The position numbers and the translations under genes are program-made. Shown here one piece after another: positions 16,284-43,130 of a stretch of DNA of 50,830 nucleotides. The stretch is from contig JAUCBJ010007034.1 of the NCBI GenBank assembly GCA_032718475.1, forward strand, positions 1 through 50,830, in the 5' to 3' direction. The stretch is from Nemertoderma westbladi. Taxonomy: Eukaryota; Animalia; Xenacoelomorpha. A model generated the notes under the pieces. It worked only from the letters and a program-made list of their open reading frames with translations, was not told where the DNA came from and searched no databases. Numbering within the stretch: the stretch's first letter is position 1; every line of letters begins with the position of its first letter.

Positions 16284-17520
16284 TGTAAAAGCTTCTGTGG
16301 GATATAACTGGCCCTTTTGCTTCGCAATCCAGTTTCCCCCCAGGCGCTGGAATACTCTAAAAGGCTCTCTAACTATATATATATTCCCCTCGCCCGCAAG
16401 GTACCGTTATAGGTGTTTTAACGGACATAAAAGTCATTCTTCTATATACGTGTTTTGGCGGACATGGTAAGGCAAAAAACCCTCAATGCACCAAATACCT
16501 TTACACAGCTTAGCCTTGATGATTCAGATTACGACATCTAACAGCTGGTTGCTGACATGGGAACAGCCATTGGACACATGGTTCTTTGTTTAGCTTAAGC
16601 CAATCAGAGCGATTTTTTCTGTCGATGTGGAGATATTCGGCCGATCATACTAGGAGTGTTCAGTCTTACTGTTTTTCTTGATACTGTTGTGTTGTTGCTA
16701 TCTAGGCCAGGAACACCGGCTCTAGAGTCAATTCGTTTCAGACTTTAGAAGAAACATTAGTAGGCTTAAGATTATAGAGCGTATAACTGTTATCGGTCCA
16801 TATCAGTACATTGTCATATCATATCTTAACCTACCGTCTTAATGGTTTGCTGTTGTTTGGTTGAATATTATTTGGAGAACATTTATAAAGAACCCAAATT
16901 TCCCAATTTTCTTGATACACTACAGGTTAGAGAGACGGGTTATATATAGCGATTGCGACTTATATTATTGTGGTTTGTAGTGAATTTAATGCTATTTGAT
17001 AAGCACTACATGAATCCGTTGCTGTTCTCTTTATATATGATAAAATTCATTGACGGTCGGCAAATTAGTGAGCAGTATTGTGTGTTACCGGTAGTGTGCA
17101 TGATTGTGACTGATAACTAAGCATTTCCTAAAGAATGCGCCTCATACGTGAATCATAAGCCTTACCGACTTACCGTTGTGATTAGTATAAGTCATATCTC
17201 TGTTTACCTAGATAGAGCGCCACGTCCAAAAGGAACTGTTAATATTTCCCGAAAGTGAATAATATTAGTCAGAAATTATTTATTAACGTTCAATCGAATA
17301 ATACAATACAGTAAGCTTACACTGCAATAATAATCTAAGCCCTCAGAATCCAGTCTCCCGGGTATATCCAGCGGGTGAATGGACGCGCACCAGGCTGGCT
17401 TCTGCTAATGTTGTGTTTATTGGTATTAAATATTTGTCAACTTCTAAAGTATATTTATAAACCAAAAGACATATAAATTTTGGCAGGTTAAACTGCTAAA
17501 GGTCTTCAAAAGCGCGTACA
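16284..17520 (+). repeat. 5' LTR of outer element
   Basis: TGTAAAA...GCGTACA; about 3 substitutions seen versus 43209-44445. Confidence 0.96.
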
Positions 17521-17531
17521 ATAACAGTTAT
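17521..17531 (+). promoter_or_regulatory. Non-tRNA primer-binding position of outer element (ATAACAGTTAT)
   Basis: Abuts the 5' LTR, lacks TGG, and is the exact reverse complement of LTR 16783-16793. Confidence 0.6.
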
Positions 17532-17875: not shown

Positions 17876-18462
17876 CTCAGATTGTTCAGATAATTGTAGG
17901 CCGGACTGTTGTCGGATTGTTGTTGGGTTTGGAGAGATTACTGCGTGTGTAGAGTTTGTCCGATAGAGTGCCAGTTAGTAAGTTGGGGCAGCCATAGCTG
18001 TAAGGTCAATCCCCTCTTAAAGAATAAGTCGTACTACCGTGTTAGAACGCATACTAACTAACCATTTTGGAATCTGCACATACTGTAGTTTATTTAGGCT
18101 TGACAGTATTCTGCCAACGTTTTGGCCTGTGTTTGTTTGTGTGGTCTGTTCAGGTACCGTAATAGTTATTACTCAGATATTTTGTAGGCTGGATTGTTGT
18201 CTAGCTATTATTAGGTCTGAAGAGATTGCTGCGTGTGTAGAGTTTGTCTGATAAAGTGCCAGTTAGTAAGTTGGGGCAGCCATAGCTGTAAGGTCAATCC
18301 CCTCTTAAAGAATAAGTCGTACTACCGTGTTAGAACGCATACTAACTAACCATTTTGGAATCTGCACATACTGTAGTTTATTTAGGCTTGGTGGTAGTCT
18401 GCCAGCATTTGGTTTGTATTTGTTTGAGTATTCTGTACGGGTAGCGTAATATTTATTATTCA
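17876..18462. repeat. ~288-bp tandem duplication in outer leader
   Basis: GAGATT.CTGCGTGTGTAGAGTTTGTC...TTTAGGCTTG blocks at ~17934 and ~18222. Confidence 0.9.
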
Positions 18463-18855
18463 GAGTTTATGCGATTATTCGCAACATTCATGTCCCCAAG
18501 TTTATTCCTACAGTAATTGTGTTTGTTACACATACCGTTATAGTTAAATTAACCCCGGTACTACACGGGCTGCTTGGCGTAGGAAAAGACTGGTGACTTT
18601 GTGCTCCGGTCACTCCAGCAGATGCCGCGGTTCTTTTAACTGTTCAAGTATATTTAACTACTGATTATTTGTTGTACCAGTACTTGTACCTAATTTAGGG
18701 TTTAGTGTACAGTGCTTTCCGAAGGTAATTAGTGTGTAGGCAGTATATTTGTGTTGTAAAGTGGTTAATAGGCACGTTGGATCTGGTAGTCCGCGGTAAT
18801 TAACTTCCAGGTAGGAACACTCCGTGATACATAACGTAGTACCTATAGCGATACG

Positions 18856-21122
18856 TGTAAGGGTCCAGTAGTATACCGCTTACCAGATCCTAGTAACGAT
18901 GTATCTTACTATGAGACTCTAGTAATGTATACGGGCTTGTACAGTATCTGACAACAAATCCCAGTCCAGGATATCTAAACAAACAGATACAATACACAAA
19001 CGACTACTGGCGAGGAACAGAGCCTTGTATCTATTCTATGTACGTGAGCGGGTCTAATGCCTACGTACTAGACAGAAGGATACCTGTCCTCTAACCGGTG
19101 AGGCAGATGTACAGTTACAGTAACAGACCAAACTCACGGGAAAACAATCCCCGCGCAGCGAATCCTAACTATCACTGACACTCCTAAATACAGTAACTTG
19201 CCGCGGTGTGATTTATATGGTTTATATACGAGCTAGGTGGTTAACAGACCTAGTGTAACAACACTGACAGTCCTAAATCAGTCGAAAAGGGGTCGTGCCT
19301 AAATGTAACAATAACTGATCCCCCTGTACGAAATCAGTCTAAAGGGTCAGGCCTAAATGTAACAATAACTGCTGGATAGAAATCAACAGTTTAATAACGA
19401 AAGTGAAATACTCCTTATCGCCACAACTAAATCAGATCCTAATTTTACAAATACAGATAATTTCCACCTAAAGTAATGTATAGTGCGCTATAGCTAGTAG
19501 AACTTTAAGGGCAATATGTTTTAGGGCGTGTGTGTGTGGGTGTGTTACAAATAAAACAATTTCGTGTAATTCCTTTTACTAGGTTTTAGTGATTTTCTGA
19601 CTAAATGATACCGTGCGCTAGCTACTAAAATAAACTAGTCGCGTTTGTAGAACTTTATACTCACGAATGATGTCAAAGCTCTCTCCTTCCTATCCACAAC
19701 CCAATGGGCAACCACAGTGTTAGTAACTACACCCGTGATCGGCACTAATACCAGATTCTGGTTGTAAGATAAGAATAGGGGTTAATCGCTACCGTACGTT
19801 AGCTGATCTGGTATACTAATTTAATTCTAGAACTTTGTTGCTGCGGTAGTTAGCAGCAATACCTATCAGTACGTGGCAAGGCGCGGTAGGATATTAATAA
19901 AACCTCCCTAGGCCAAGCAGTGTGCCGGTAGCAGAAATGCTCCTTGCCTGATCAAATAGCTAACTCCAGACAGGGGGGGGGGGGGGGGGTACTAATGTAC
20001 GTTCTACAAAGCGAACCGGTACCAAACAGTCAGTGCTATGAATCACTAAATTATGGAACATATGATGTCCGTACCTAATATGTACTCGCGTACTGACGAA
20101 TGGCAATAGTTCGCACCTGTAGGAAGTACAGGTTAACCCAGGGATTCGTAGGACTTGACAAGGGGGGGTGTCTGGATATAATTATTTGATCCTAAATTTG
20201 CGGCGTCCAGTACGGTGTCACGCTTACCCTGATCTATAGGTCTTACGGCGGGCAAGGGCGTCGAACAAAGTCTTACCTTCTCACAAAGCGGGCGCTGCAT
20301 AGCAAGTGGAGTATTTCGAAGGGCAAAGGGGGTGCGCGGTCAATCCAATGTGGGCGCTAGCGTGTTGTGGACATCCCTTCCCTGCGTTGCTTACGGCCTA
20401 ACGGTCTAGGCTGCCATCTCCCTGATGTTCGGCTGTCCCGAAGTTGGACCAAAAGAAAACATGTCAGGAATTTGCAGTATATTTACAGTTTTACAAAAGG
20501 ATTTATCAAATAAAGTTTCAACAAGAAACCGAAATAAACTAATAACAATTTAGGAATTTGCAAGAGTAAGTGATAACGTAACGTGATATTAGGTGATAAC
20601 CGAAGGCAAACCGGCCTTTTTATACTAGAAATTGCACATGGAAACTAAACAGAATTTTCCACAGCTTCACAATTGAGCAATGAAGTGCTTCGTGCCCTAT
20701 GATTGGCCCAGCTCATCGTTCAACGCAGTCCGGCCCTTACACTAATCTGGGACATGGAATCCTAACAGAATTTTCCACTGCCTCACATTTGAGCAATAAG
20801 ATAATTTATGCCCTATGATTGGCCTGGCTCATCATTCGCTACGCTGTACGCTTCTCATTGGCCTACCAATTAGCACCACACGAAAATAAATGGCCCCAAA
20901 ATACAAATTTCCCGACTGGGATTCGAACTCGTAACCTATGTAATGTAACCAACGCCTTAACCATCTGACCACTACGCCACGAGAGTACCTAAGGGTTTTA
21001 TGTGTACAAATATGAATAGGCATATTACATTACTGTAACTCAATCAAAATACGTCGGATTTTCGAAAGTTTTTACGTTAAAGTTAAACTACAAATGCTAT
21101 CTTATAGTGAAATAATTCATCA
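18856..21122 (-). repeat. 3' LTR of inner element (2267 bp)
   Basis: Near-identical to 32697-34959: about 4 substitutions, a 1-nt indel and G17 versus G14. Confidence 0.97.
20911..20978 (-). other. tRNA-like A/B-box cassette in inner 3' LTR
   Basis: GTGGTCAGATGGTTAAGGC ... GAGTTCGAATCCC followed by TTTT; acceptor and T stems do not pair. Confidence 0.6.
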
Positions 21123-21137
21123 CCGCTCCATGAAAAC
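21123..21137 (-). promoter_or_regulatory. PPT-position sequence of inner element (GTTTTCATGGAGCGG)
   Basis: Directly precedes the TG of the 3' LTR; same GGAGCGG end as the outer element. Confidence 0.8.
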
Positions 21138-21587
21138 AGTAAGTAAGGCTGTTTTCACCAATCGAAATATAAAATATTTACAAACTATTTCTAAATTTAC
21201 TGGTAGGGCCTAAAATATAAAATATAATCACTATCTAATTATTGCATACTTAATATTGCAGATACGGCGTAAATACAATCGATCGTACATACAAATACAA
21301 ATTTACTAATTAACTTTAGTGCCTAAAATACAAAAAAGGCTTTCGGTTATCAAGATAAACAAATTAAACAAATCAGAACAAATAAATCAAACAAATCAAA
21401 CAAATAAATCAAACTCTTTCGATAAATCTTTATATATTGTAAATATACATAATAAACCTTCACCAAATTAAATCAGTCCAAATATAATATAAACATAATG
21501 CGCTAATAACTTTCAAATAAGTCTTAAAGAGTCCTCCTGACGATCTTAAAAGTTCGTCCTGCTGGTCTGGATATCTTCTCCTGAGCA

Positions 21588-22231
21588 CTAATTGCTAACG
21601 GTAGGCTCGCAAGCCTTCCTTTCCATATCTCGCCCTTCCAAACCCAACGTCCGATATAAATACCCAAATATAATATCCAAATATAAAATATCCAATATAA
21701 CATCCAAATATAATATCTGAATATAATATCTGAATATAATATCCTTTCTTCTCGCTTTCCTATTCCTTGGCCGACCGGGCTCGTCCACGTCCTCTATTGC
21801 GATTGGGTGGTGGTCGAGGTCGAACTGGGCTCGGACTTCGGCGTCGAGTTGTCGGTGGTTCCAAAACGCTAGGAAAGGGGACGACGGGAGATGAAACGAC
21901 CGCCTTCTTGGTAACGCAGACTTTGGTGGTTTGGGCAACGCGCTAATATCGGTTCGGGGTTCTCGCAAACGTCGCTGGCGTCGCATAACGCATCGTAGGG
22001 GTACAACGCTTTGAACTCCGCGCGTAACTCCTCCGCTGTTTTGTTATAAGCGTCCAATCGCTGTCGCGTGACGTTTGGATCCGCCTTGGATTTAGCAAGC
22101 TTGGCTGTACTCCTAGCCATACTCTCCACTCCAAACGGGTTAAAGTTTTGGTCCCATATCGGTTGAACGGCGCCTGGTGCTCCTATTCCTGCGTGGATCT
22201 TTGATAATAGTGTTTCTACTAGAGGAAGCAC
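21588..22231 (-). CDS. Candidate accessory coding region downstream of pol (overlapping ORFs 21869-22231 and 21588-21986), unknown function
   Basis: GC-rich open frames in an AT-rich 3' region, preceded by CTAAC, a pyrimidine tract and AG (exon start 22218); basic motif RPRNRKARRK. Confidence 0.4.
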
Positions 22232-22910
22232 AAACAGAGGTTAGATGTGAGGTGACTTAGAGTTTGTCGGCTTTTGGCTCAACTCTGCTCTAAACCCCAA
22301 CCCATTTGCCTAATGACTTCGGGTTCGCGTGATTTCGCACTGGCCCCTAATCCAAAAAATTGTGCCGATAAAAAACGAATTCCGGGTAAACTAGCCGTGA
22401 GTCTAAAATACTCACCTTTTAATTTCCCCGCTACTTCCCAAAGAAAATAATGCAGTCGAGAATTAATTCGGTCTAAATAATAGTAGACACGACTACGTAG
22501 AACAAGGCCGATTTTCTTTTCCAAAAAAAAAATTTATCGGTAGGCTCGCAAGCCTTCCATCCGCTCTTGTCCTCCCCAATTTCAATTTTATCTAGCTGTA
22601 TTCTAGAATTTGCTTTCACTGGAGAATCGTTTTTCTTAAATTTAAATCCAAACAAATGGATTTGTCTAATAATTTTTGAAAAATTGTCTCACTTGTGGGT
22701 TCCAAGTGGAATTCCATTCCTACTGTACACACAATCCCGCTCCTATGTGATACATAAGGGTACTACCCTCCATGTTCACGTATAAAGACAATGGAATTCC
22801 ACCGCTGTCTCTATCTACAGTGAAGAGGATTACAAATGCACGTACAGTAATACAAATACAAATAACTAAAATACAGTAGGTCTATGTGGCGGCCAACAAA
22901 GGTCCCACAT

Positions 22911-24926
22911 CTATTTACTAATATTGGGTGGAGATTTGTAGTCTCCCGTCTCGTTTCTAGTCTCTTCAAGGAGTACGAGACGTTGTACAGGCCTGTCTAC
23001 GGTACGTCCGTCGATAGTCCTTACAGTAACTGTCCTCACTACACCAGATGTAGGGTGCGTGGTCAAAATGACTCCAGTCAACCAAAACCGTCTTTTCAGA
23101 TTAGCTTCAGCCAATAAAACATGGTCACCACGTCTTAAACATCGGGTATTTAGATACCAAGAGGTTCTGGTCGAAATAGAGGGCAAATAATATTTCTGCC
23201 ATATTTCCCAGAATTTATTTGCAAGCAATTGAGTGATTTTCCAAGCCTTGTTGCCGTATCCGTCACTATCAACGGGTACCGAAATGGGCAACAATGTCGT
23301 CGGCGCCTGCATAAGCAGGTGCGCTGGTGTCAAGGCAAACTGTACGTCGTTATTGTCTGGGATCAAAGCGATCGGTCTGGTATTTAAGATTGCTTCGATT
23401 TCTATTAGTAACGTCGTTAGTTGGTCGTCTGTCAAGATGTGTTGCGTCGGTACGACTTTAGCCATAGCTGTCTTTATTGAGCCAATCAGCCTTTCCCAAA
23501 CGCCGTCTCTCCACGGACTGTCTGGAGTATTGAAAACCCAAACAATACGGTGAGGACGTAGTTCCTCGGAAATCTGGTTTTGGTCCAATTTTCTCAAAGC
23601 TCTGGTTATCTCGTTCCGTGCACCCACAAAGTTTGTCCCTTGGTCGCAGTATATGGATTTGACCAATCCACGTCTAGCGATAAATCGCCGTAAGGCTAGG
23701 ATAAAGGCATTGGTGGTCAAGTCTGTCACTCGCTCTATATGGACAGCTCTGCTGGCCATGCAAGTGAAGATCAATCCCCAACGTTTTACCTGTACCCTTC
23801 CGCGTTTCGCGATTATGGGTCCAAAACAGTCTATTCCTGTCTCAGTGAAAGGGGGTCTAAACGCCTGTAATCTCGCTAATGGTAGTTCACTCATTTCTTG
23901 GTGTCCTATCCTCGCGTGCACCTTCTTACAAATAATACAGTTCCGTGTTACTGAACTCAGTGCCTTACTAGGTCTAATCAGTACAAACCTCGAACGTAAG
24001 TATGATAGACAGTGGTGTCTACCTACGTGTTTGAGTTGTACATGTGCGTCCAGTATCATAGCGCGCTGTAACTCATGGTGTTGCGGTATGATGATAGGAT
24101 ACCTAAAGTCAAGTGCAAAGTCGATGTTTTGGAGTCTGGACTTGTGACAAAGTAAGCCCCGGTAAATAATCGGACTCCAACTCAAAATCGGTGAAGACTT
24201 AATCTGTTTACCTTGTTTGATCGCTGTGAACTCTCGTGCGAAATATCGCAATTGATAATGTCTAATGATACCAACTTCACAGTGGTCAATTTCCTTTAAG
24301 GTAAGTCTTCTAGGAAAGTCGCGTTTGCCTCTGGCATATTGTCTCAATCGTTTGAGCCATGCTAACTTGCGGCACGCGTCAGTCCATGATCTAGTTAGGT
24401 TCACTATCCTGTCAACGTAAGTGTTAGTGACGTCATCGGGTAAGGTGTAGTCGTAGTGTGGATACTTGTCTGGACTTGGTAGGCCCACGGGCCTTCCGGT
24501 AGGTTTGTCTGAGTCCCCAAGTACGTCAATCTCTACGGTCTTACCTTTGCCGTCCGCACCTAATATGTTGACTGGCAGTAATGGTTTCAACTCTACAGTG
24601 TCAGTGTGTTCCTGTGAGCTTGTAAGCTTCCTAACCTTAGTCACCACTTTACCTGTAGGTAAGTCAAGTACCTTCTTCGAGCGGAGTGTAATCCCTGTGG
24701 CCACACCTTTGTCGTCCAAAGAAGTCAAATTTGGTAAGTCTCTAAAAGTCCGCTCCAATGGGTCTTCTAATGGAGTGTCTAGTAGACAGTCTGGTGAAGC
24801 GTCTGGTGAACAGTCTGGTGAGACGTCTGGTGAGACATAGCGCGGAACATCCGGCGAAATGTCCTGTCGTCGGTCCCAAAGTCTGTCTAGTGTATCTTCC
24901 GTCAGAAAGTCTGGTTCAAAGTCTGG
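22911..24926 (-). CDS. Inner pol segment: linker and integrase
   Basis: HVQLKH..CIIC zinc finger, GIDCFGP, CDQGTNFVG, GVWERLIG, RPVQRL; the frame extends upstream of 24758 to a +1 frameshift near 24927. Confidence 0.93.
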   Translation of the reverse strand, partial: PDFEPDFLTEDTLDRLWDRRQDISPDVPRYVSPDVSPDCSPDASPDCLLDTPLEDPLERTFRDLPNLTSLDDKGVATGITLRSKKVLDLPTGKVVTKVRKLTSSQEHTDTVELKPLLPVNILGADGKGKTVEIDVLGDSDKPTGRPVGLPSPDKYPHYDYTLPDDVTNTYVDRIVNLTRSWTDACRKLAWLKRLRQYARGKRDFPRRLTLKEIDHCEVGIIRHYQLRYFAREFTAIKQGKQIKSSPILSWSPIIYRGLLCHKSRLQNIDFALDFRYPIIIPQHHELQRAMILDAHVQLKHVGRHHCLSYLRSRFVLIRPSKALSSVTRNCIICKKVHARIGHQEMSELPLARLQAFRPPFTETGIDCFGPIIAKRGRVQVKRWGLIFTCMASRAVHIERVTDLTTNAFILALRRFIARRGLVKSIYCDQGTNFVGARNEITRALRKLDQNQISEELRPHRIVWVFNTPDSPWRDGVWERLIGSIKTAMAKVVPTQHILTDDQLTTLLIEIEAILNTRPIALIPDNNDVQFALTPAHLLMQAPTTLLPISVPVDSDGYGNKAWKITQLLANKFWEIWQKYYLPSISTRTSWYLNTRCLRRGDHVLLAEANLKRRFWLTGVILTTHPTSGVVRTVTVRTIDGRTVDRPVQRLVLLEETRNETGDYKSPPNISK

Positions 24927-25150
24927 TAGAGACGTCCGGTAGACATTCTGTCGAGAGTTCCATCAAACAATCTGGCGAACAATCCGGAGAACAATCTGGT
25001 GTCTCTTCTGGTGAATAGTCTGGCGAGTAATCTGGTGAACAATCCGGCGAAACGTCTGGTGAAATCTTCTGCGGAACATCCGGCGAAGGATTCGTACAAG
25101 CGTCTGGTCGAGTGTCTGGCGAGACGTCTGGCGTAATGTCAGGTCTGGCG
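24760..25150. repeat. Degenerate 12-bp coding minisatellite (SPDx repeats) between RNase H and integrase
   Basis: TCTGGTGAA/TCCGGCGAA iterations translating as SPDV/SPDC/SPDY. Confidence 0.85.
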
Positions 25151-26735
25151 TCCAGGTCATCAGATTTCGTCCGTCCTTTTTTCCTTTTGACCTTGGCGTT
25201 GGCTTTCGCTTTAGACTTGACAACCTTGTCGAGTTTTATCTCGGCACCCTCTGGTATGGTGTTGGTTGTCGCGTCGAATAACGGTGGCCATTCGTCTGAT
25301 GGTCGCTGTAGGAAATCGGGTCCTCTAAACCAAAAGGATTTATTGTCCGGTTTACAAAAGTCAAGTGGTTGCATCCCCCGTGACGCGATGTCAGCTGGGT
25401 TCAGCTTCCCTGGACAGTGACGCCAATCTTGTTTGAGCGACCGGTCTAATATTTCAGCCCGTCTGTTGGCTACGAAAGTCTTGAACTCGAATGTTTCGTT
25501 GTTTATGTACCAAAGTACCAACGTCGCATCCGTCCAATATGTGACCTTCAAGTTAGCCTCCAGCTCGCGTTGAACTAGACTGACAATATCGGTGGATATC
25601 GTCCCGGCTTGCAGCTCCCCACGAGGTACAGTCATATACTTCAATGGCATTGTTCTAGCCCTTGAAGTAACGAGAGACACATCGTAGCTGTCCGATGTCA
25701 CTTGTCGTCTAAGGTATAAGGTAACCCCCAATCCATCCTTGCTAGCGTCACTAAAGCTGTGAAGCTCTAAATCGGCAGGAAAGGTGGTTTGCAAAGGAAA
25801 GTATACCCTCGGTATGGTATAGTCTTGTAGGAACGTCAGTTGGGCTTCCCAGTCCCTCCATCGCTCAGCTAACTTTTCTGGGATGGGATCGTCCCATTCC
25901 AGTCCGGCTTGCCAAATGCTGCGGAGTATGATCCTGGCATGTAGGATCACTGGACTAATGAAACACAATGGGTCATACAATCGACTCATGGTCGATAAGC
26001 AAGTCCTCTTAGTGAGAGGTCTAGTCTGGTCGTTGGACCTTACACGTACCCTAAAATTGTCGGTGTTAGGGTCCCAACTAAGTCCTAATACTTTGGTCGT
26101 CGGCAGAGGTTCTAAGTCTAAGTCCAAGTCACCTCCGCTACGATCCATCGGGTCAAATGAGTTCACCAGTTCGGGTTCGTTGGAAGCGAACTTCGTCAGG
26201 TGAAATCCGCCCTCAGCGAGACAATCCTGGAGTTGGTGTGCTACGGTTGTAGCGCGCTCCAAGGTGTCACAACTCTTGAGGCCGTCATCCACGTAGAAAT
26301 CTCGTTCCACGGTCCGAACTACTTCTGGGTCAAATTGGTCTCGTCTGTCCAATGCTGTCTGCTTCAATGCGTACATGGTGCAGTTGGGGCTGTCCCTGGC
26401 TCCAAATACTCTTACCTGCATTTGGTAAGTTTCTGGCAGAAGTTGTAAGTTTCCGTCCGGATACCAAAGAAACCTCAAACTGTCCCTGTCCCGCTCCAAA
26501 GCCTTAACCTGGTGAAACATGGCCTCTACGTCACAGGTGAAAGCCACTTTGCGTTGTCTAAAACGCATTAGGACTCCCATGAGGTAATTATTCATATTCG
26601 GCCCGTCCATCAGTTCGCTGTTCATAGACATCCCTTGGTAAAGCGCAGCGCAGTCATTGACTACACGCACCTTGCCAGGTTTGTCCGGGTGTCGAACAAA
26701 ATGATGTGGCAGGTAATATGTCTGGTCTGTGGTTA
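24916..26735 (-). CDS. Inner pol segment: reverse transcriptase and BEL-type RNase H
   Basis: YYLPHH and PGKVRVVNDC upstream of the listed start, DVEAMFHQV, FYVDD, HSFSDAS, YWTDAT, WRHCPGKLNPADIASRG. Confidence 0.95.
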
Positions 26736-27752
26736 CCTGGCGTATCCCTTTTGGAGATACGTCTGAAGTTGTGCATTGTATTGCATATGGGCCGTCTCGT
26801 CTCGCAACAATCGCTGCCTTATTGATTTGAGTCGCCTCAAAGCAAGCGGGTAATTGTTAACGAGCTTAGGTTGTCCATTGCGCCACAACATACCAACCTC
26901 ATAGTGGCCATTCGCGGTCTGGCGAATGGTATCTCTCATAATATTTAATGACCGTTTTTCCTGTTCTGACATAGCGGTTTCGTAACTACCGGGTTCTGCT
27001 GAGTCCTGTTCCAACCATTGTATGGTCCGTTCAGTCAGCAGTCGGTCAAGCGCTGCTTGCACTGCTCCATGGTCCTCGTCCACGTCTTCGTCCGCTGCGG
27101 TGGCTAGTGTCAATGTGTCTGGTAGGCTCGCAAGCCTTCCGGTGTCACTAGTCGGCGTCGAATTGTCGTGCGGCGGTTTGACAACCTCTTGATCTATCGG
27201 TAGGCTCGCAAGCCTTCCAAGATCAACGACCGGTGTCGAAGCCTGGTGGGTGGGGTCAATGACCTTCGGATTTTTCGGTAGGCTCGCAAGCCTTCCAAAA
27301 TCCTCGTTCATCGAGTCATCCATGGCAACAACCCTTTGGCCTTCAGTAGTCAATACAACCTGGTCTACTGCAAGTAGTTGTAAGTCAGAGGTCCGTATGG
27401 TCGTGTCCAGATCGGTTGCGTCAGTATCGGTGGCGTCTGCATTAGTGACGCAAGTCTGTCGTAGTGCCGTCCGTACAATTGGACCACGAGAGTGTGAAGG
27501 AGAATTATCTATCGTGTTAGTCAATAAACTACACGTACTCAAAACGTCGTCCTCCTGGTCACTTACCTCTAGTGAACGTATTGGTGCTCTAGTATACCAA
27601 CCTATGGGAGTTCTACATGCGTAGGGGTTGCCCGCTGTAATAACAGATGGGCGTGTCTCCCATACCTGATGTAAGTTAAACTGGTCTGTCCCAATTAACA
27701 TCGCAATGGAACGATAATTAACAGGACATTCCGGTATTCCAAGGTGTCGGAA
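26733..27752 (-). CDS. Inner pol segment: protease C-terminus and PR-RT linker
   Basis: In frame with gag after the TAA at 27753-27755 (FRHLGIP..MLIGTD, TPIGW, GHYEVGMLW); ends in a frameshift at GYAR; contains three 78-bp repeats. Confidence 0.88.
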   Translation of the reverse strand, partial: FRHLGIPECPVNYRSIAMLIGTDQFNLHQVWETRPSVITAGNPYACRTPIGWYTRAPIRSLEVSDQEDDVLSTCSLLTNTIDNSPSHSRGPIVRTALRQTCVTNADATDTDATDLDTTIRTSDLQLLAVDQVVLTTEGQRVVAMDDSMNEDFGRLASLPKNPKVIDPTHQASTPVVDLGRLASLPIDQEVVKPPHDNSTPTSDTGRLASLPDTLTLATAADEDVDEDHGAVQAALDRLLTERTIQWLEQDSAEPGSYETAMSEQEKRSLNIMRDTIRQTANGHYEVGMLWRNGQPKLVNNYPLALRRLKSIRQRLLRDETAHMQYNAQLQTYLQKGYAR

Positions 27753-30700
27753 TTACTTACGATCTTCCGGTGATTGCTCTGGCACAGGGCCGAGCAAGTT
27801 ACTAAAGTCCTTCGTAGCTGCAAAGGTCAAATTTCTTACCGGAAGTAATGAGCGCTCCTCCTTGCTGTGTTCCGCTTTGGAAAGAAGAGTGTCTAAGGTT
27901 AGTTTTACTCTTGTCACGGGGATCGCTCTCTTACCATGCATGCTGCTTACAGTATACTGAGCAGTCTTACCTTGACTCATGTCCGTAACTACGTCGGCTA
28001 CTTGTTCGTCGACATAACTATGCGATGACGCAGAGTCTAAGATGGCGTATATACGCTTGCTCCCTCGGGTTCCGGTAATCTTTATAGGAATCACGCTAAA
28101 CCCTTTCAATTGGTTCTGTGTGAGGAGCGTTATCGATGGCTGTTCCTCACCTGCATGCACGTAGAAAGTGTCGTCTTCCTCCTCGTCCTCGTCCGATGAT
28201 CCTGACTGATCCATACAGTCGGTATAAAAGGTACGGATCTCGCGCGGCGCACGCTCCTTATAAAGCGCGTCGCATCTAGCCGCTTTATCTGGATGCTCTC
28301 GTCGAAATTGTCTGGTCGGAGTATGACTGGTTGTGTGAAGCAACGCGTCATGGTTACGTCCACACAGAGAACATGTATCGTCGCTCGGGCAATCCTTCCG
28401 GACGTGTCCTGGCTTCATACATCTCCAACAGGAATCTAGAGATCGGATTTGGAGTCTCCTCTCCTCGATCCCTAACTCTTTAAAAGCGCGACATCCACGT
28501 AGTTTATGTCCGCTTTGGTTTCTGCCGTTCCGCTCGCAGTATGAGCATCCCACAAAGTCCGCCGGCAACTGTTGTCGTGGCTGCGTGGTGCCGATAGGCG
28601 TCAGAACTTTAGAAGTCTCAGTAGGGGTGGCGTAAGTAACGGCTTTCGCGTTCGTCGGAAATGGTTTAGTCCGATTCGGCGCAGAAACAGCTATCCCTTC
28701 CGCCGCGATATGGTGATCGGTATAGTTCGATCTAGTCTCGATCATGGCCTCCCGTGAAATAAGTTGATAGACATCGGTGAGTTTTAATAACCCTCCGGCC
28801 TCTTCGCGCTGGTACTCGATGCGTCGCCATTCTCTTCGTAGTCGATGGTGAAGTCGACCGATTATTCGAATGAGAACCGTCGGTGCGTTAGCGTACTCGA
28901 GTTGTCCAATGGACCGTAAAGTCCCTATAGCGTTCTTTATTTCGTCCGCGAGTCGTAAAAGGTCGATCGGTCTCGAAATGTTGCCTCCTCTGCAGAGGTC
29001 TTCAATAATGGATTTAGCCATGGCGACATTACCGCCGTAAATCGAATACAAACGCTCGTACGCCAACTCAAAGGCATCGGGAACACCAATAAAGGTTTCC
29101 GCTAATCGTTTCGGCTCACCAGACAGAACTTGGAGCAAGTAATTAAACTTCTCCGTCGAGGTGAAAGCACACTTAGCGATCTGGGACTCTACGTAGTCTA
29201 CCAGTGTGCGCCAATGTTTCGCGTTGCCAGAGAACTTCGGCGGTTGCTGTGCCGGTAATCCGTGTCTAGCCGCGAATTTCGCAATCTCGCTAACTAAGTC
29301 CAACTGTCCGCGTCCCTGTTCGGCGGCGTCGTCCAGTCGCTCCCTTCCGCGCGTTGTTCGTTGGTAGGAATTATTAACGGGATCTTCATCTCGATGTGTC
29401 GGAGTCCGTCTAGTCTCCTGTTCTCTCCTCGGTGGTCGATGTTGTCTAGGTTGTTCCAACTCCACGCTGGTTCGTGATCGATCCGACGGTTGCGCTTCGA
29501 GTCGCTCTTCGAGTTGAGCTAGTCGGTCCGTTACAGGTCGCATTATTTCGGCGAGTCTGTTGGTGCTGATCGCTTCCGCTGGTTGCAACGTGGGTTTCTG
29601 TTGGGGTGTTTCTCGTGGAGGATTATCGATATAGGGGTTCGTCGATCGTTCCTCCCGTTTGTAATCCGCTGCCGCTGCCGCTCCAGTACGGAATATTTCC
29701 CGTTCCGTCGACTCCGGGTCACTGGATGAATCGCTGTCGTCCGGATAAGGTGGTTGGCGGGTTCGCGTCCGGCGTATTATTCTTGGTCGAGTTCGTCGTG
29801 GTCTGGGATCTACGGCTCCTCGTTGTTCGGTAGGCTCGCAAGCCTTCCACGAAGTCGTAGGTCTCGTTAAACATTGGGTGAGAGGTCTAGTAAAAACATC
29901 TGAGTTAAGTTCTACTGTAGGTTTATAAATGACTGGGTTCGCGCAGCACGTCACAGGTTTAACTTGCAATGGTTTACTCACCTGTTTTACTGTCATAAAC
30001 GCAGGTTCGTCTCTCTCCACAAGTAAACTACGACTTACTGTAGGTGGACTAGTTATGTTACCTGCTAAAATTGGCGATGAAGTCGCCCTAGGTTGCGGTA
30101 TTTCCATCACAACAAACCTGCTACCTTGCGTCTGGCGCACAGGCGTTATTTCCTTAGGTTTCGTAACAAAGACCGGTTTTATCGGAGTCGTGGGTTTGAG
30201 CATTGGAATAACTTGGGGAAAACGTTTACAGTAATCCTCGACGAACTCCTCTCCTCGATCTATCGCTCCCACACTTCCTTCCTCGATTCGCTTCTGGATT
30301 CCGCGATATCGAGTCTCCATGCGATCCAGGGCAGACAAGTCGTGTCCAGTTCGAGACCTTATAGATCTATCTCTCGCGTCGAGTTCGAGGTCCGCTTGCG
30401 CGTTCGCTGCCTCGCGCGATCTACGATTCAGTTCGAACTGGAGCTGCATCTCTCTTTCGCGTCGATCTGCTTCCTGTTGTTGTGCCGCTAACTCCGCTTC
30501 CTGTATCGCTAAACGAGCGTTTATTTGTCGCGCCTCCAACTTGGCACGAGCGTCGGATGCTGCTTTCTTCCGTGCTAACTCAGCTGCGTTTACCGCCGCA
30601 ACTCGTGCTAACTCGTCGGCTGCCGCCGCTGCCTGTCGTGCTAGCTCGTCAGCTGCTGCCGCCGCGGCCGCTTCTCGCGCTAAGTCCTCCTCCAGTCTCC

Positions 30701-31694
30701 GCATCTCTGATGCTTCGAACTCAGCCTGTGCTTGAAGTTTCGCAAGTTTCGCTACATCCTCTCTGCGCTGTTTTTCTCCTTCGATGGCGATCTGTGCCAT
30801 CTGTAGTTGCGCTTCTTCCTCGGCGACTTGTTGTCGGCGTGCGACCTCCTGTTGTTGTCGAATAATTACAGATGCTGTTCTACTAACGTTGCCAACGTCG
30901 CCAACGTCGCTCCGTACGCTCACGAACGATCTATCCAGTGGTGGATGTTGGTAGGCTCGCGAGCCTTCCGTAGTGAGAACTTCCGTCGTCCCTCGCGGTT
31001 CGACTTCCGGTTCGTCGATCGGTACGCCGCATCTACGAAGAAAATTGGTCAGCGTTTCCAACCTTCCGTCCAGGCAGTAGAGTTCTTCTTCCTCTTCGGG
31101 TTGTAACAACGCGTCCGAAACTGACTCACCTAGCAGTTGGTCGAACTGCTCCTGTTGAGCCAATCTTATTACCGACTTAAACTGGATAAGGCTTTCTCTC
31201 GCACTTACCAATTTATCTACTATCTTTACCTGAGTAAAGTTGTCGCCACGCAACTCTGCAAGTTCGTGCAAACCTTTAAGTTTATCTACGGAGGCATGTA
31301 CCCTACTTTCTATCCTTACCTTTAAGGTGTAGAACTCGTATCTCGACATCGGGGCGGTTAACTCGCGTAAAACGCGAAAACCTTCTCCGAGGTTCCGAGT
31401 AATCTGGGCCATGTGTCCTCCTATACTTCTAATAACGTTCTCCTGGCTTCCAGTCGAACTTACCATGTCCGGTTCCCGTGATCTAGTCTGCGGGACGGTA
31501 AGGAAATCTTCAATTCTGCCGTCGCCACGCGTTGCGGCTTCCGGTATTTCCGTTCGGGGTACCGGCGACGCAAGCGGTGTGACATCGGTGGAATCTCGGG
31601 TTCTCCTTCTCGGTTCGTCTACTGTCGATCTGTCCGGGTCGCACGAGTCATAGTCGGTAGGTGGGTATCTCGTCGAATGGGGTGTGTCACTCAT
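27753..31694 (-). CDS. Inner Gag and aspartic protease N-terminus
   Basis: Ala/Glu coiled coil, PPKFSGNAKHW (DUF1759-like), BEL triple zinc motif (CSYC..H..C, CWRCMKPGHVRKDC, CSLCGRNHDALLH), ILDSASSHSY. Confidence 0.94.
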   Translation of the reverse strand: MSDTPHSTRYPPTDYDSCDPDRSTVDEPRRRTRDSTDVTPLASPVPRTEIPEAATRGDGRIEDFLTVPQTRSREPDMVSSTGSQENVIRSIGGHMAQITRNLGEGFRVLRELTAPMSRYEFYTLKVRIESRVHASVDKLKGLHELAELRGDNFTQVKIVDKLVSARESLIQFKSVIRLAQQEQFDQLLGESVSDALLQPEEEEELYCLDGRLETLTNFLRRCGVPIDEPEVEPRGTTEVLTTEGSRAYQHPPLDRSFVSVRSDVGDVGNVSRTASVIIRQQQEVARRQQVAEEEAQLQMAQIAIEGEKQRREDVAKLAKLQAQAEFEASEMRRLEEDLAREAAAAAAADELARQAAAAADELARVAAVNAAELARKKAASDARAKLEARQINARLAIQEAELAAQQQEADRREREMQLQFELNRRSREAANAQADLELDARDRSIRSRTGHDLSALDRMETRYRGIQKRIEEGSVGAIDRGEEFVEDYCKRFPQVIPMLKPTTPIKPVFVTKPKEITPVRQTQGSRFVVMEIPQPRATSSPILAGNITSPPTVSRSLLVERDEPAFMTVKQVSKPLQVKPVTCCANPVIYKPTVELNSDVFTRPLTQCLTRPTTSWKACEPTEQRGAVDPRPRRTRPRIIRRTRTRQPPYPDDSDSSSDPESTEREIFRTGAAAAADYKREERSTNPYIDNPPRETPQQKPTLQPAEAISTNRLAEIMRPVTDRLAQLEERLEAQPSDRSRTSVELEQPRQHRPPRREQETRRTPTHRDEDPVNNSYQRTTRGRERLDDAAEQGRGQLDLVSEIAKFAARHGLPAQQPPKFSGNAKHWRTLVDYVESQIAKCAFTSTEKFNYLLQVLSGEPKRLAETFIGVPDAFELAYERLYSIYGGNVAMAKSIIEDLCRGGNISRPIDLLRLADEIKNAIGTLRSIGQLEYANAPTVLIRIIGRLHHRLRREWRRIEYQREEAGGLLKLTDVYQLISREAMIETRSNYTDHHIAAEGIAVSAPNRTKPFPTNAKAVTYATPTETSKVLTPIGTTQPRQQLPADFVGCSYCERNGRNQSGHKLRGCRAFKELGIEERRLQIRSLDSCWRCMKPGHVRKDCPSDDTCSLCGRNHDALLHTTSHTPTRQFRREHPDKAARCDALYKERAPREIRTFYTDCMDQSGSSDEDEEEDDTFYVHAGEEQPSITLLTQNQLKGFSVIPIKITGTRGSKRIYAILDSASSHSYVDEQVADVVTDMSQGKTAQYTVSSMHGKRAIPVTRVKLTLDTLLSKAEHSKEERSLLPVRNLTFAATKDFSNLLGPVPEQSPEDRK

Positions 31695-32685
31695 GTCTTA
31701 TTATATACGTCAAGTACGGATAATAAAATGTCAAAGTGTCTGAATGTTGAAGTGTCAAACTTACCTAACCGGTACAAATAAATCAACAAGTCAGAATGTC
31801 GAAATGTCAAAATGTCGAAATGTACAAATGTCAAACTTACCTTGATATATATATATATCATATATATACCCTAACCGGTACAAATAAACTAACAAGGTAT
31901 ATAATAAAATAAGTAGTAATCTAGCCTACCGGCTAAATTTGTACGAATAAGTGAGATAACGGTATACGTTAACAAAATGTAGATCAACAAGTATAAACAA
32001 TAGGCCTAACAGCAACGTCTAACGGGAAAATAAGTACCAACAACACTACTAATAGACAGTGAAACCCACAAATTTTGAGTACTACTGTGCTTTCTTAAGT
32101 TTGAACGACGCGAGTCGTAAAACTTACGTTCCTTTGATCTTCCAGTCGTACAAATTCCCAAATACAAACCGGACGTGGGTCTTTCCGTTTTTCGGCGGCG
32201 CGGACGAATTTATTGTCTCCCAAACTTTGCGAAAAGCGGTCTAATCCTCGAAGCGGTCCAGAAATGAGTCCTTGAGTCCTGAAAAGGTCGAAGGTGAGAG
32301 TTTTACTTCTACGCTTACGAAAATCTTCCTAGGTACCGATACAAATTGGTCTTTAAACCCTATGTACCTTTTCAAGTACCGAAAAGTAACACCGCACACA
32401 CACGGCGTAAAACAAAGTGCTACAAACTAACTGTTAGCTAGTCAAAGATTAAATACGAAAGTACTAGCTACCCTAAAAGCCTACTGAAGCAGGGGACGTT
32501 CTAAATTACTAAATTTACTAACCTTAGTTTTTAAATATCTCCTACTTACAATAGCTAACAAATATTTATCTATATCTCACTTTAAATGCGCACGCACTTT
32601 CGGTCGAGATATTTAATAAATACTTCCTACTTCCAATAGCTAGCAGATCTAAACTATACTACAGTACTATACACTAATTTATATA

Positions 32686-32696
32686 GTACTTCCTAC
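32686..32696 (-). promoter_or_regulatory. Non-tRNA primer-binding position of inner element (GTAGGAAGTAC)
   Basis: Abuts the 5' LTR, lacks TGG, and is the exact complement of transcript-strand GTACTTCCTAC at 33956-33966. Confidence 0.62.
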
Positions 32697-34453
32697 TGTA
32701 AGGGTCCAGTAGTATACCGCTTACCAGATCCTAGTAACGATGTATCTTACTATGAGACTCTAGTAATGTATACGGGCTTGTACAGTATCTGACAACAAAT
32801 CCCAGTCCAGGATATCTAAACAAACAGATACAATACACAAACGACTACTGGCGAGGAACAGAGCCTTGTATCTATTCTATGTACGTGAGCGGGTCTAATG
32901 CCTACGTACTAGACAGAAGGATACCTGTCCTCTAACCGGTGAGGCAGATGTACAGTTACAGTAACAGACCAAACTCACGGGAAAACAATCCCCGCGCAGC
33001 GAATCCTAACTATCACTGACAGTCCTAAATACAGTAACTTGCCGCGGTGTGATTTATATGGTTTATATACGAGCTAGGTGGTTAACAGACCTAGTGTAAC
33101 AACACTGACAGTCCTAAATCAGTCGAAAAGGGGTCGTGCCTAAATGTAACAATAACTGATCCCCCTGTACGAAATCAGTCTAAAGGGTCAGGCCTAAATG
33201 TAACAATAACTGCTGGATAGAAATCAACAGTTTAATAACGAAAGTGAAATACTCCTTTCGCCACAACTAAATCAGATCCTAATTTTACAAATACAGATAA
33301 TTTCCACCTAAAGTAATGTATAGTGCGCTATAGCTAGTAGAACTTTAAGGGCAATATGTTTTAGGGCGTGTGTGTGTGGGTGTGTTACAAATAAAACAAT
33401 TTCGTGTAATTCCTTTTACTAGGTTTTAGTGATTTTCTGACTAAATGATACCGTGCGCTAGCTACTAAAATAAACTAGTCGCGTTTGTAGAACTTTATAC
33501 TCACGAATGATGTCAAAGCTCTCTCCTTCCTATCCACAACCCAATGGGCAACCACAGTGTTAGTAACTACACCCGTGATCGGCACTAATACCAGATTCTG
33601 GTTGTAAGATAAGAATAGGGGTTAATCGCTACCGTACGTTAGCTGATCTGGTATACTAATTTAATTCTAGAACTTTGTTGCTGCGGTAGTTAGCAGCAAT
33701 ACCTATCAGTACGTGGCAAGGTGCGGTAGGATATTAATAAAACCTCCCTAGGCCAAGCAGTGTGCCGGTAGCAGAAATGCTCCTTGCCTGATCAAATAGC
33801 TAACTCCAGACAGGGGGGGGGGGGGGTACTAATGTACGTTCTACAAAGCGAACCGGTACCAAACAGTCAGTGCTATGAATCACTAAATTATGGAACATAT
33901 GCTGTCCGTACCTAATATGTACTCGCGTACTGACGAATGGCAATAGTTCGCACCTGTAGGAAGTACAGGTTAACCCAGGGATTCGTAGGACTTGACAAGG
34001 GGGGGTGTCTGGATATAATTATTTGATCCTAAATTTGCGGCGTCCAGTACGGTGTCACGCTTACCCTGATCTATAGGTCTTACGGCGGGCAAGGGCGTCG
34101 AACAAAGTCTTACCTTCTCACAAAGCGGGCGCTGCATAGCAAGTGGAGTATTTCGAAGGGCAAAGGGGGTGCGCGGTCAATCCAATGTGGGCGCTAGCGT
34201 GTTGTGGACATCCCTTCCCTGCGTTGCTTACGGCCTAACGGTCTAGGCTGCCATCTCCCTGATGTTTGGCTGTCCCGAAGTTGGACCAAAAGAAAACATG
34301 TCAGGAATTTGCAGTATATTTACAGTTTTACAAAAGGATTTATCAAATAAAGTTTCAACAAGAAACCGAAATAAACTAATAACAATTTAGGAATTTGCAA
34401 GAGTAAGTGATAACGTAACGTGATATTAGGTGATAACCGAAGGCAAACCGGCC

Positions 34454-34705
34454 TTTTTATACTAGAAATTGCACATGGAAACTAAACAGAATTTTCCACA
34501 GCTTCACAATTGAGCAATGAAGTGCTTCGTGCCCTATGATTGGCCCAGCTCATCGTTCAACGCAGTCCGGCCCTTACACTAATCTGGGACATGGAATCCT
34601 AACAGAATTTTCCACTGCCTCACATTTGAGCAATAAGATAATTTATGCCCTATGATTGGCCTGGCTCATCATTCGCTACGCTGTACGCTTCTCATTGGCC
34701 TACCA
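34454..34705 (-). promoter_or_regulatory. Putative Pol II promoter in inner U3
   Basis: TATAAAAA at 34461-34454; three GGCCAAT boxes upstream; two ~116-bp direct repeats containing TTGAGCAAT and TTTTCCA. Confidence 0.6.
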
Positions 34706-34747
34706 ATTAGCACCACACGAAAATAAATGGCCCCAAAATACAAATTT

Positions 34748-34815
34748 CCCGACTGGGATTCGAACTCGTAACCTATGTAATGTAACCAACGCCTTAACCA
34801 TCTGACCACTACGCC
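34748..34815 (-). other. tRNA-like A/B-box cassette in inner 5' LTR
   Basis: Copy of 20911-20978. Confidence 0.6.
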
Positions 34816-35514
34816 ACGAGAGTACCTAAGGGTTTTATGTGTACAAATATGAATAGGCATATTACATTACTGTAACTCAATCAAAATACGTCGGATTTTC
34901 GAAAGTTTTTACGTTAAAGTTAAACTACAAATGCTATCTTATAGTGAAATAATTCATCAATACGGCTATAGGTCGTCAGGCGGTGGTATTTTCCTATCTG
35001 GACAGTGCAATATATTTACTACTACTTATTATTTTCAAATACCGTAGTACCCTGTCCGTTGTAATAACCAGAATTCTAACCCTTTGTTAGGCTGGTTTGT
35101 AGACTTCCTGTAAAATTACCCTAAAAATTCGTACGTAATATTTTGTTGTGTTTAATTAGAGATTTAATCTCACCCATATCGTAAGTAATTTGTAGTATTA
35201 AGTAACTTAGGTAAATTAGAATTATCTGTTTTAGTGTCCAATAAATAGCACTTCACTGAGAGCGCCCAGCTTCTGTGTAGTGACCCCCCAGAAATAATAA
35301 CATTTTATTTCGAATATTGACAAAACCCATTTTAAACGAGTATATAAATATTATAAATCAACTCAACCGATTTATAAATAGTAGGCCTGCCATACAACAA
35401 CTAGGTCTCAATATCAGTTGGACTACTGCTTAAATAACGGTAATAAAGTAAGTTAAAGTACGGTAACCAAGTAACCCTAAAATATTCAGAAATTCAATTA
35501 TTCTAAAATAATTG

Positions 35515-35765
35515 ACATACCGGTATTTACCATAGGCTTATTATATTTATTTCTATAAATTTGAGCTGAAATCATACCGGTATTCTGTAATTAATTCTAG
35601 TTCATAATTATACTTATATATACTATAAGTGTAAGCTGTATACCGGTATTCACGATAGGCCTATTATATATTTATATATATTTGTGCTAAAATTATATAC
35701 CGGTACTCTGTGACAAATCTAGTCTGAAATAATACTTAAATATACTATAAGCATACCGGTATTCT
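35515..35765. repeat. Array of ATACCGGTA motifs at 56-66 bp spacing upstream of outer gag
   Basis: ACCGGT at 35519, 35576, 35642, 35699 and 35755 within degenerate tandem units. Confidence 0.8.
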
Positions 35766-35897
35766 AATATATTATATATATCACGCTACACTGAGTAGCA
35801 GTATCGGTAATTAATTGTTAGGCTAACAGTGATACTGAATTACTAGACTTACTTTAACTGTATTTATAGCCGTAGGCATTCAACTGTGTAAACAAAC

Positions 35898-42082: not shown

Positions 42083-42176
42083 GGAGATTCAGCCTATCGC
42101 GCCCGGAACAGCGACAACGATTATATCCTAGAATGGTATCAAGGTCCACAGTGTCTCACTGCGTACAATTATCGCC

Positions 42177-43130
42177 ATGCCAACTATGTTTCTCGGCAAC
42201 GTTGTCGGTTATGCGCATCGAGAGACCATGTTACGCCCATGGACAAACGTCCGCTGTTCCTATTTCCACGAACAACCGGTGATGGAAATTTATTGTGCGT
42301 ATTGCAGACTCAATAACTTGCACATTTTTGCGGTTTGCCCTCAATTTATGACTCAATGTCACCATTGTCAACTAAAGGGACACGCCAGTTTCGATTGCCC
42401 TTTTAATCACGATTTGGAAAGCGTAGATGAAATGATCACACTACGTTACATCAGAGCTTGGGAAGCGAACGCTGATTTACATTGTGATTCGCGCCATCGC
42501 TATTATCCTGGACGCGCTTACGAAGGAGTTTATGCGTTCCATCCTTATCTATTCGCTTCTGTCGAACAGAAATCACGCATATCGAGTTACGAACTACTGA
42601 AGCGCGTCGGAGAATGTATTTCAACCAAATTCGTACGCAAATTTCTCAGGAGTGTTAATCCTAGCGACCTTCATTCCTATGACTTAATCAATTATATCCG
42701 TCAGGATCCGGACTATGGAGACTTGTTTGTTAACTCACACCCCGAGTTACAGGAAGTATATCGACGGCCTTACGAATACCGAGCCCGCGAACGCGAGTTG
42801 GAAAGAACCATTAAACCCCGGAGGTTTCTAACTGCCTATGGTCCACCCACGGCCCTCGTTCAGACCACTCGTAAAGGACCCGTAAGAGCGGCTGTCTTGA
42901 AACGAGCTCTCAAAGCCGTTAGACCCCTCTCCCCTGACGTTGATGTCAATCAACCCGGTACTTCGACTGGCGGATACACCGACCATAATCCTACACCCTC
43001 TGATGCAATCATATTGCACCCTTCACCCAGGAGTTATAGCCCTCCTTGTAAAGTGGCTCGCCCCAAAGAGAAAAGGACTCTGGCTAGCTTTAAAAAACTG
43101 CGTAAACGCCGTCCGCGCAAGAAAGACTAA
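42177..43130 (+). CDS. C-terminal part of outer accessory ORF: CCHC zinc-knuckle protein with basic NLS-like tail
   Basis: CAYCRLNNLHIFAVC, CHHCQLKGHASFDC, C-terminal KKLRKRRPRKKD; ends 78 bp before the 3' LTR. Confidence 0.72.
   Translation: MPTMFLGNVVGYAHRETMLRPWTNVRCSYFHEQPVMEIYCAYCRLNNLHIFAVCPQFMTQCHHCQLKGHASFDCPFNHDLESVDEMITLRYIRAWEANADLHCDSRHRYYPGRAYEGVYAFHPYLFASVEQKSRISSYELLKRVGECISTKFVRKFLRSVNPSDLHSYDLINYIRQDPDYGDLFVNSHPELQEVYRRPYEYRARERELERTIKPRRFLTAYGPPTALVQTTRKGPVRAAVLKRALKAVRPLSPDVDVNQPGTSTGGYTDHNPTPSDAIILHPSPRSYSPPCKVARPKEKRTLASFKKLRKRRPRKKD

Follow-up and report, generated by a model that had tools for sequence, protein, structure and literature searches.

A near-identical 20-nucleotide palindrome dispersed through a BEL/Pao retrotransposon of Nemertoderma westbladi: candidate Gag-binding and dimer-linkage RNA hairpins

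Why does a single retrotransposon carry the same 20-nucleotide (nt) palindrome eight times, in three reading frames and on past the end of pol, and is this palindrome read as RNA or as DNA? The question is raised by a contig of the xenacoelomorph Nemertoderma westbladi (GenBank assembly GCA_032718475.1, contig JAUCBJ010007034.1); the whole stretch analysed, positions 1 to 50,830, is referred to below as the window. It contains two nested BEL/Pao elements, each flanked by long terminal repeats (LTRs), and the palindrome lies within the inner element, which is encoded on the minus strand (hereafter the element strand). An earlier note, made from the letters alone, had proposed a multivalent binding site of the packaging, RNA-export or anti-silencing and autoregulation type. 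Our analysis reveals that the motif is a real, constrained and family-internal signal. On the reading that we prefer, to which we give a probability of about 0.45, its copies are dispersed Gag-binding and dimer-linkage RNA hairpins.

All eight copies lie on the element strand, as the earlier note had it. Six of them are exact and start at 21600, 22539, 27121, 27199, 27277 and 29829, where they had been placed. The copy at 30950 carries one mismatch, a similarity reached in none of 100 shuffled windows (mean 0.00), and the eighth copy, starting at 24478, differs at four central bases. The 14-nt cores that had been quoted for these two copies begin three bases further on, at 30953 and 24481. From 5' to 3' on the element strand, the copies are as follows.

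30950–30969, minus strand: copy 1, with a CGCG loop, in the N-terminal portion of gag (phase 2), covered by 0 of 49 homologues.
29829–29848, minus strand: copy 2, with a UGCG loop, upstream of DUF1759 within gag (phase 1), covered by 0 of 49 homologues; an extended stem is predicted.
27277–27296, minus strand: copy 3, in the first of three 78-nt tandem units in the linker between protease and reverse transcriptase (RT), with a 6-bp lower stem.
27199–27218, minus strand: copy 4, in the second tandem unit, with a lower stem in the register of copy 3 and two double changes.
27121–27140, minus strand: copy 5, in the third tandem unit.
24478–24497, minus strand: copy 6, with a CGUG loop closed by C-G, in the RNase H–integrase linker, covered by about 10 of 80 homologues.
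22539–22558, minus strand: copy 7, past the pol stop.
21600–21619, minus strand: copy 8, some 480 nt ahead of the 3' LTR and adjoining an AT-rich 13-nt tandem array.

The copies span 1728 to 11078 nt past the 5' LTR in an internal region of 11.6 kb, all between the LTRs, with gaps of 1121, 2552, 78, 78, 2643, 1939 and 939 nt between successive copies. A covariance model built from the eight copies scores them at 36–42 bits, and the best other site in the window reaches 13.6 bits; with this model no copy is found in the other 39 kb of the window, the second BEL/Pao element included. A scan of the window allowing up to six mismatches likewise yields no ninth copy, and the outer BEL/Pao element, whose pol is largely missing, holds no comparable dispersed repeat. 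Outside the motif, the half-site GCCTACC occurs at five independent places, which is about chance by our estimate. Among the contigs of the element family, joints from 21686, 21908 and 21717 end within three bases of a motif edge, one of them at a depth of 5036 with a short side of 21 letters; the analysis covered 15 out of the 185 joints and 12 out of the 88 between-letter rows. These three joints suggest that the motif has been gained or lost at other positions among family members.

The three reading frames that had been claimed are found in the six coding copies, which lie in phases 2, 1, 0, 0, 0 and 0, and the two copies said to lie beyond pol are both past its stop at 22911. The coding copies are placed in linkers that are mostly missing from homologues, where the protein tolerates them. 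The tandem triple is covered by 1, 2 and 5 of 215 homologues; by comparison, cover in the conserved domains reaches 46 (of 49), 213 (of 215) and 73 (of 80). All sense frames of the 21-nt unit are free of stops, and the unit can therefore sit in any phase; one stop occurs in an antisense frame.

That selection acts on the nucleic acid rather than on the protein, as had been suggested, is borne out by variation among family contigs and by comparison of the tandem units. Variation was scored at a threshold of at least 2% in contigs of four runs (three samples) over 27070–27350, a segment that covers three of the eight copies (the tandem triple) and shows 27 variable places. Within 27118–27316, 1 of 60 motif positions varies, compared with 26 of 139 spacer positions (Fisher p 4e-4); over the whole segment, the ends of which are poorly read, the same contrast gives p 0.01. 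One of 42 positions varies in the motif arms and none of 18 in the central six nt (P 0.024). The spacer changes comprise 19 non-synonymous and 8 synonymous ones, and the protein there is therefore loose. Restricting the count to third codon positions (0 of 18 in the motif, 8 of 48 in the spacer; p 0.07) or to CpG bases (1 of 9 and 10 of 27; p 0.15) leaves a contrast in the same direction that is not significant. In the comparison of the tandem units, the motif is identical at 20 of 20 positions in all three, with flanks that share 29, 22 and 17 of 58 bases pairwise and thus differ at 50–70% of positions. The flanks of the first two units are alike above background (29/58 versus 0.26; p 7e-5), indicating that the triple derives from a 78-nt unit.

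In the predicted fold, every copy has 2 bp followed by an A·A mismatch and a further 5 bp below a Y-G-Y-G tetraloop, and in some copies this hairpin stands on a longer lower stem. None of the eight has lost the A/A asymmetry, and the predicted loops UGCG, CGCG and CGUG place G at positions 2 and 4 in every one. Among the 27 hairpins with a 5-bp stem on the sense strand of the internal region, these eight are the only ones with an N-G-N-G tetraloop. Directly flanking the motif is a pair that reads U·G in four copies, C·A in three and A·G in one, and is never Watson–Crick; we take U·G and C·A to be isosteric in RNA. Furthermore, the copies at 27277 and 27199 have a common 6-bp lower stem in a single register and differ at 4 of its 12 positions, these four differences being two compensating pairs, U-A/C-G and G-C/U-A. 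Among family contigs, both partners vary in four pairs of the lower stem, and in each case pairing is restored (permutation p 1e-4 to 1e-3 with 15–25-nt flanks; slid registers give at most 1). The sole variant inside the motif turns G-C into G·U on the element strand, where pairing is kept.

In addition to the hairpin, the motif may pair with itself. The three centre variants are self-complementary on the element strand if G·U is allowed, and any two copies are predicted to pair as an 18/20-bp duplex. The self-duplex of the common variant is predicted at –30.7 kcal/mol on the element strand, compared with –22.9 kcal/mol on the other strand and –7.6 kcal/mol for the hairpin. Self-duplexes of the three variants range from –30.7 to –34.9 kcal/mol and cross-duplexes from –24.6 to –32.8 kcal/mol, and pairing between two copies of the triple has a predicted probability of 0.95. 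The predicted hairpin probability is 0.50–0.96 in 65-nt segments and 0.0–0.96 in 200-nt segments. We judge a role as a single-stranded hairpin to be probable.

Among the options raised by the earlier note, a packaging-type RNA signal would fit best, because of the N-G-N-G loops, the three zinc knuckles of Gag, the stem-preserving changes and the self-complementarity. In human immunodeficiency virus type 1 (HIV-1), the nucleocapsid (NC) knuckles bind the second and fourth G of the GGAG and GGUG loops, and a knuckle of Rous sarcoma virus (RSV) binds G218 of the stem-loop C (SL-C) loop (PMC7599994). The RSV SL-C loop reads UGCG and is the target of the N-terminal knuckle; NC no longer bound once the loop had been replaced (PMC5035970). 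The retrotransposon Ty1 dimerises through a hairpin-to-duplex switch of the palindromes PAL1 and PAL2 (PMC6844567). On a comparable model, the 20-mer would fold as a small hairpin within the genomic RNA of the element, and the Gag zinc knuckles would bind the two loop guanines. Acting as a chaperone, the knuckles could then turn hairpins into duplexes, whether inside a single RNA molecule or across two; the outcome would be a more compact genomic RNA, a dimer held together at several points and selection of family RNA for particles. New copies would arise through local duplication or template switching by RT and would persist only in linkers and non-coding parts.

The likeness to known RNA signals lies in predicted structure rather than in position. 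As in the retroviral psi loops (RSV SL-C, HIV-1 SL3 with GGAG and SL2 with GGUG), the motif combines a short stem with an N-G-N-G tetraloop (PMC7599994, PMC5035970), and in all eight copies the loop is predicted to carry G as its second and fourth base. Its commonest loop is identical to that of RSV SL-C, and this element too encodes a zinc-knuckle Gag. Unlike the psi loops, it occurs as eight near-identical copies over 9.4 kb, six of them in coding linkers, and the foremost of these is found in gag, 1728 nt beyond the 5' LTR, rather than in a 5' leader. The self-complementarity of the RNA strand, with a hairpin or a duplex as predicted alternatives, is a property shared with the dimer-linkage sites, namely Ty1 PAL and the retroviral dimer initiation site. 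Like PAL1/PAL2, the motif belongs to an LTR retrotransposon and has self-complementary arms that could form a hairpin or an intermolecular duplex; Ty1, in contrast, has one hairpin in its 5' untranslated region with 6–7-nt palindromes, whereas the motif is a repeated 20-nt unit (PMC6844567). The dispersed packaging signals of MS2 and hepatitis B virus likewise are stem-loops with a common loop motif distributed across a coding genome, and those of single-stranded RNA viruses differ in being degenerate and bound by coat protein, Gag-like proteins being merely speculated upon (PMC6281560). By analogy, the motif on the best reading would work like psi loops and Ty1 PAL, yet it fails the 5'-leader position that defines them.

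Several results weigh against Gag-binding and dimer-linkage hairpins. The compensatory changes claimed by the earlier note come down, inside the motif, to one pair in one copy (U-A to C-G), and this core compensation is not significant, with 339 of 500 shuffles equal to it. Hairpin probability in the 200-nt context is 0.0–0.23 for three of the eight copies. Only at 27199, 27277 and 29829 does a copy do better than its own shuffles (0.016, 0.022 and 0.054, respectively), and flank swaps among the eight copies give p 0.05–0.90, so that extended stems are not general. Lower-stem positions vary like unpaired ones (12/70 versus 14/69). Wobble-safe transitions number seven on the element strand and four on the other, the commonest favouring the other strand; family variants therefore leave the strand unfixed. 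With 29-nt flanks on the element strand, the permutation p for the compensated pairs rises to 0.13; moreover, their alleles are unphased and eight of eight match the letter of a neighbouring unit, so that they add no independent evidence beyond the comparison of the units. Template switching alone can yield compensatory changes without selection (PMC8794818). The contrast between motif and spacer is also affected by depth, which piles up over the motifs (up to about twofold) owing to contigs of other motif copies and makes the 2% threshold harder to reach there, and contigs also drop rare variants. As for the analogues, dispersed viral packaging signals are degenerate rather than near-identical (PMC6281560), and an RSV UGCG-to-GAGA change left the selectivity of full Gag unreduced in one assay (PMC5035970).

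The main alternative is that the motif is a double-stranded DNA (dsDNA) site for a dimeric protein of the host or the element, made up of two YGGWAGGC-type half-sites, distributed over the body of the element and acting in anti-silencing or transcription control, like the RM boxes of plant Sireviruses or the VANC targets of VANDAL transposons. We regard this as rather unlikely. The two half-sites at fixed spacing, the near-invariance of the arms and the family variants, which do not clearly favour the RNA strand, would agree with it; the motif centre, however, is likewise invariant (0/18), the A/A asymmetry is retained throughout, and the double changes in the lower stem and the U·G/C·A flank pair have no dsDNA reason. 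Sirevirus RM boxes are family-specific palindromes of 11–20 nt in an LTR retrotransposon, with at least eight copies (8–32 per element) and a position near TATA; they belong to plant Ty1/copia elements, where they cluster in the LTR and before env around a CGG-CCG core (PMC2829016). The motif differs from them in lacking that core and any full copy in the LTR, upstream of TATA or elsewhere (covariance model), and in lying mostly in gag-pol. VANC targets resemble it in being family-specific, in the same orientation and multiplied by tandem duplication, and differ in length (8–9 bp), in being neither palindromic nor coding, and in belonging to a DNA transposon whose VANC protein is known (PMC5735166). 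Shared orientation fails to separate RNA from DNA, because VANC motifs also form one-orientation arrays (PMC5735166). RM boxes and VANC sites are mainly non-coding, whereas six of the eight copies here are coding and no non-coding array with a VANC-type protein is found: the small 3' frames have no Pfam family, and the longest one bearing a Met has no Atlas look-alike. CpG is undepleted in the element and its flanks (observed/expected 0.85–1.19), which also speaks against a dsDNA site. Its remaining support is a partial match, AGGC-N6-GCCT, between TATA and the likely start, of a kind expected by chance about 0.36 times per window. The location that the earlier note gave for this core is confirmed, and its membership in the motif family is not: it obtains no score at E ≤ 10 with the covariance model. 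Neither the outer GG/CC pairs nor the loop pattern is present in it, and it is one site doubled together with the LTR; we consider it probably unrelated to the 20-mer family. The VANC-like or autoregulation option is weak because this core fails the model and the accessory protein has neither family nor look-alike.

34441–34454, also 20604–20617, strand not assigned: AGGC-N6-GCCT, adjoining TATA.

Somewhat less likely still, in our estimate, is a hairpin read by a host RNA-binding protein instead of Gag, which would serve to export unspliced RNA, localise the RNA in the germline or shield it from decay. All structural evidence for the hairpin fits this equally, and the even spacing along an intron-less RNA of 11.6 kb would suit multivalent loading; it leaves the self-complementarity of the centre in all three variants unexplained, however, and no host factor can be named. 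The motif presumably resembles the histone stem-loop, and Rfam covariance models over 18000–36000 gave no match to any family at E ≤ 1, apart from one weak and unrelated one, which also counts against a host reader. An improbable explanation is a functionless by-product, that is, a stop-free palindrome of 20–21 nt copied via template switching and homogenised by conversion. The absence of stops from the sense frames of the 21-nt unit would permit such spread, the three joints at motif edges are consistent with further copies elsewhere, 11 of the 27 variant places carry the letter of a neighbouring unit, as expected from conversion, and template switching can make and mend stems (PMC8794818). 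Conservation, however, ends sharply at the 20-mer, with tandem-unit flanks diverged by half or more, and palindrome correction should remove the A/A mismatch that eight of eight copies retain. In addition, no indel reaches 2% in the triple, and the confinement of the motif to the inner element within the window, with the second BEL/Pao element lacking it, argues in the same direction. We also weighed a small-RNA target site and set it aside, since such a site has no need of a palindrome and the centre is altered in the copy at 24478.

The host of the motif is a BEL/Pao LTR retrotransposon (Belpaoviridae), with LTR ends TG...CA, a 5-bp target duplication and the domain order gag followed by protease, RT, RNase H and integrase. 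DUF1759, Peptidase_A17 and DUF5641 are present, and the Integrase_H2C2 match is weak; both the LTR ends with the target duplication and the domains place it in BEL/Pao. The RT region is 38–47% identical to the 120 BEL/Pao Peptidase_A17 proteins listed, the named ones of which are from animals. The near-identical LTRs indicate a recent insertion. In this copy there is an in-frame stop (27753), and the frame of pol changes twice. The parts of the inner element are as follows.

32697–34959, minus strand: 5' LTR, TG...CA, with three CCAAT boxes and TATA at 34461.
27753–31697, minus strand: gag–protease frame with DUF1759, closing at an in-frame stop.
28335–28547, minus strand: three zinc-knuckle patterns at Gag residues 1051–1121, the putative binding partner of the motif, proposed from pattern matches.
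22911–27752, minus strand: pol in three pieces (linker and RT start; RT–RNase H containing Peptidase_A17; integrase containing DUF5641); the frame changes near 26733–26856 and 24916–24962.
18856–21122, minus strand: 3' LTR, with 4 mismatches and 4 gap columns in 2267 compared with the 5' LTR.
32686–32696, minus strand: 11 nt at the primer-binding position, not of TGG type, with an exact complement at 33956–33966 in the element's own LTR.

The internal region is covered by thousands of variant pieces from contigs of four runs in four studies (16,308 in X1 and 7,436 in X2), from which we conclude that the family has many copies, contig depth over the element not being equal to copy number. Downstream of pol and ahead of the 3' LTR, the minus strand carries small frames of 123 and 151 aa at 21588–22240, where summed contig depth is about one third of pol depth and the region therefore varies among copies; three small 3' frames have no Pfam family, and the 123-aa frame is the longest Met-bearing one referred to above. 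In the RNase H–integrase linker, 12-nt tandem arrays at 24754–25087 encode SPD-type repeats, and a frame change falls there. Near the start of the LTR, upstream of the three CCAAT boxes, lies a tRNA-like pair of what we take to be an A-box and a B-box (34756–34808 and about 20920–20970), which is called by neither ARAGORN nor Rfam at 34756–34808. At 15432–45771 the nesting has three levels, the inner element lying within the outer BEL/Pao element, with LTRs at 16284–17520 and 43209–44445 (99.8% identical, 5-bp duplication), and the latter within 260-nt inverted repeats that are 97% complementary. An extra 332-aa frame at 42132–43130 on the plus strand, before the outer 3' LTR, has a Cys/His knuckle-like pattern and a basic C-terminus, and no Pfam family.

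The sequence directly beside the LTR may depart from what is described for BEL/Pao elements, which carry an 18-nt primer-binding site complementary to host tRNA-Arg or tRNA-Gly and LTRs of 0.2–1.2 kb (PMC8742986), the inner LTR here being 2.27 kb. No TGG-type primer site lies directly beside the 5' LTR in either BEL/Pao element. The outer element likewise has, at its primer position (17521–17531), an exact 11-nt complement in its own LTR (16783–16793). Such LTR complements are reproduced by 4 of 4000 shuffles for the inner element and 8 of 4000 for the outer, and are found for 7 of 11564 and 6 of 9569 internal 11-mers, respectively. The 11-nt self-complement resembles the self-priming of Tf1 and Tj1 (PMC4600332, PMC6317226), and both nested elements possibly show a Tf1-like self-priming signature, which would be at odds with the tRNA priming listed for BEL/Pao by the International Committee on Taxonomy of Viruses (ICTV; PMC8742986). 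The inner complement lies about 490 nt past the TATA box and is therefore not obviously at the 5' end of the RNA, and one literature search listed nothing specific on self-priming BEL/Pao elements. The stretch 32686–32696 also holds the first five bases of the motif and the complement of its bases 15–19, possibly by chance. A bolder proposal, which we consider doubtful, is that this lineage swapped the single 5' packaging and dimer signal for a movable, frame-neutral 20-nt RNA zipper with eight-point genome locking and tRNA-free self-priming. The unit would then spread into every tolerant linker, and its hairpin would bind the knuckles and afterwards lock two genomes, or distant parts of one.

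Beyond the window, two protein searches with gag gave no relative at E ≤ 0.001; the RT search gave relatives at only 38–47% identity among the 120 matches listed, none of which carries the peptide footprints of the motif, and in the linker search the best stretches lie almost all over residues 230–339, beyond the motif triple. Viral contigs yielded neither the motif nor a related locus. A metagenome scan with a free 6-nt centre found at least 120 loci from one of 64 parts, the 80 listed all being single matches, and none of these 120 had a Y-Y-G-Y-G-R centre. In 596 Gb of prokaryote genomes, two single exact matches were found, with about one expected by chance. No description of such a motif in BEL/Pao elements was found in the literature searched, which was mostly open-access and without supplements, and PMC3118150 makes no mention of primer, PBS (the primer-binding site), palindrome, motif or zinc.

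To our knowledge, RNA selection and pairing by LTR retrotransposons are known in detail for little beyond Ty1. The ICTV profile terms BEL/Pao replication poorly understood (PMC8742986). A near-identical 20-nt signal placed in three frames provides a sharply defined target for distinguishing RNA from DNA recognition. If the copies are bound by Gag, the dispersed-packaging-signal model would be at work with a Gag protein; if they are bound as DNA, the inner element would provide an animal counterpart to the anti-silencing arrays of plants.

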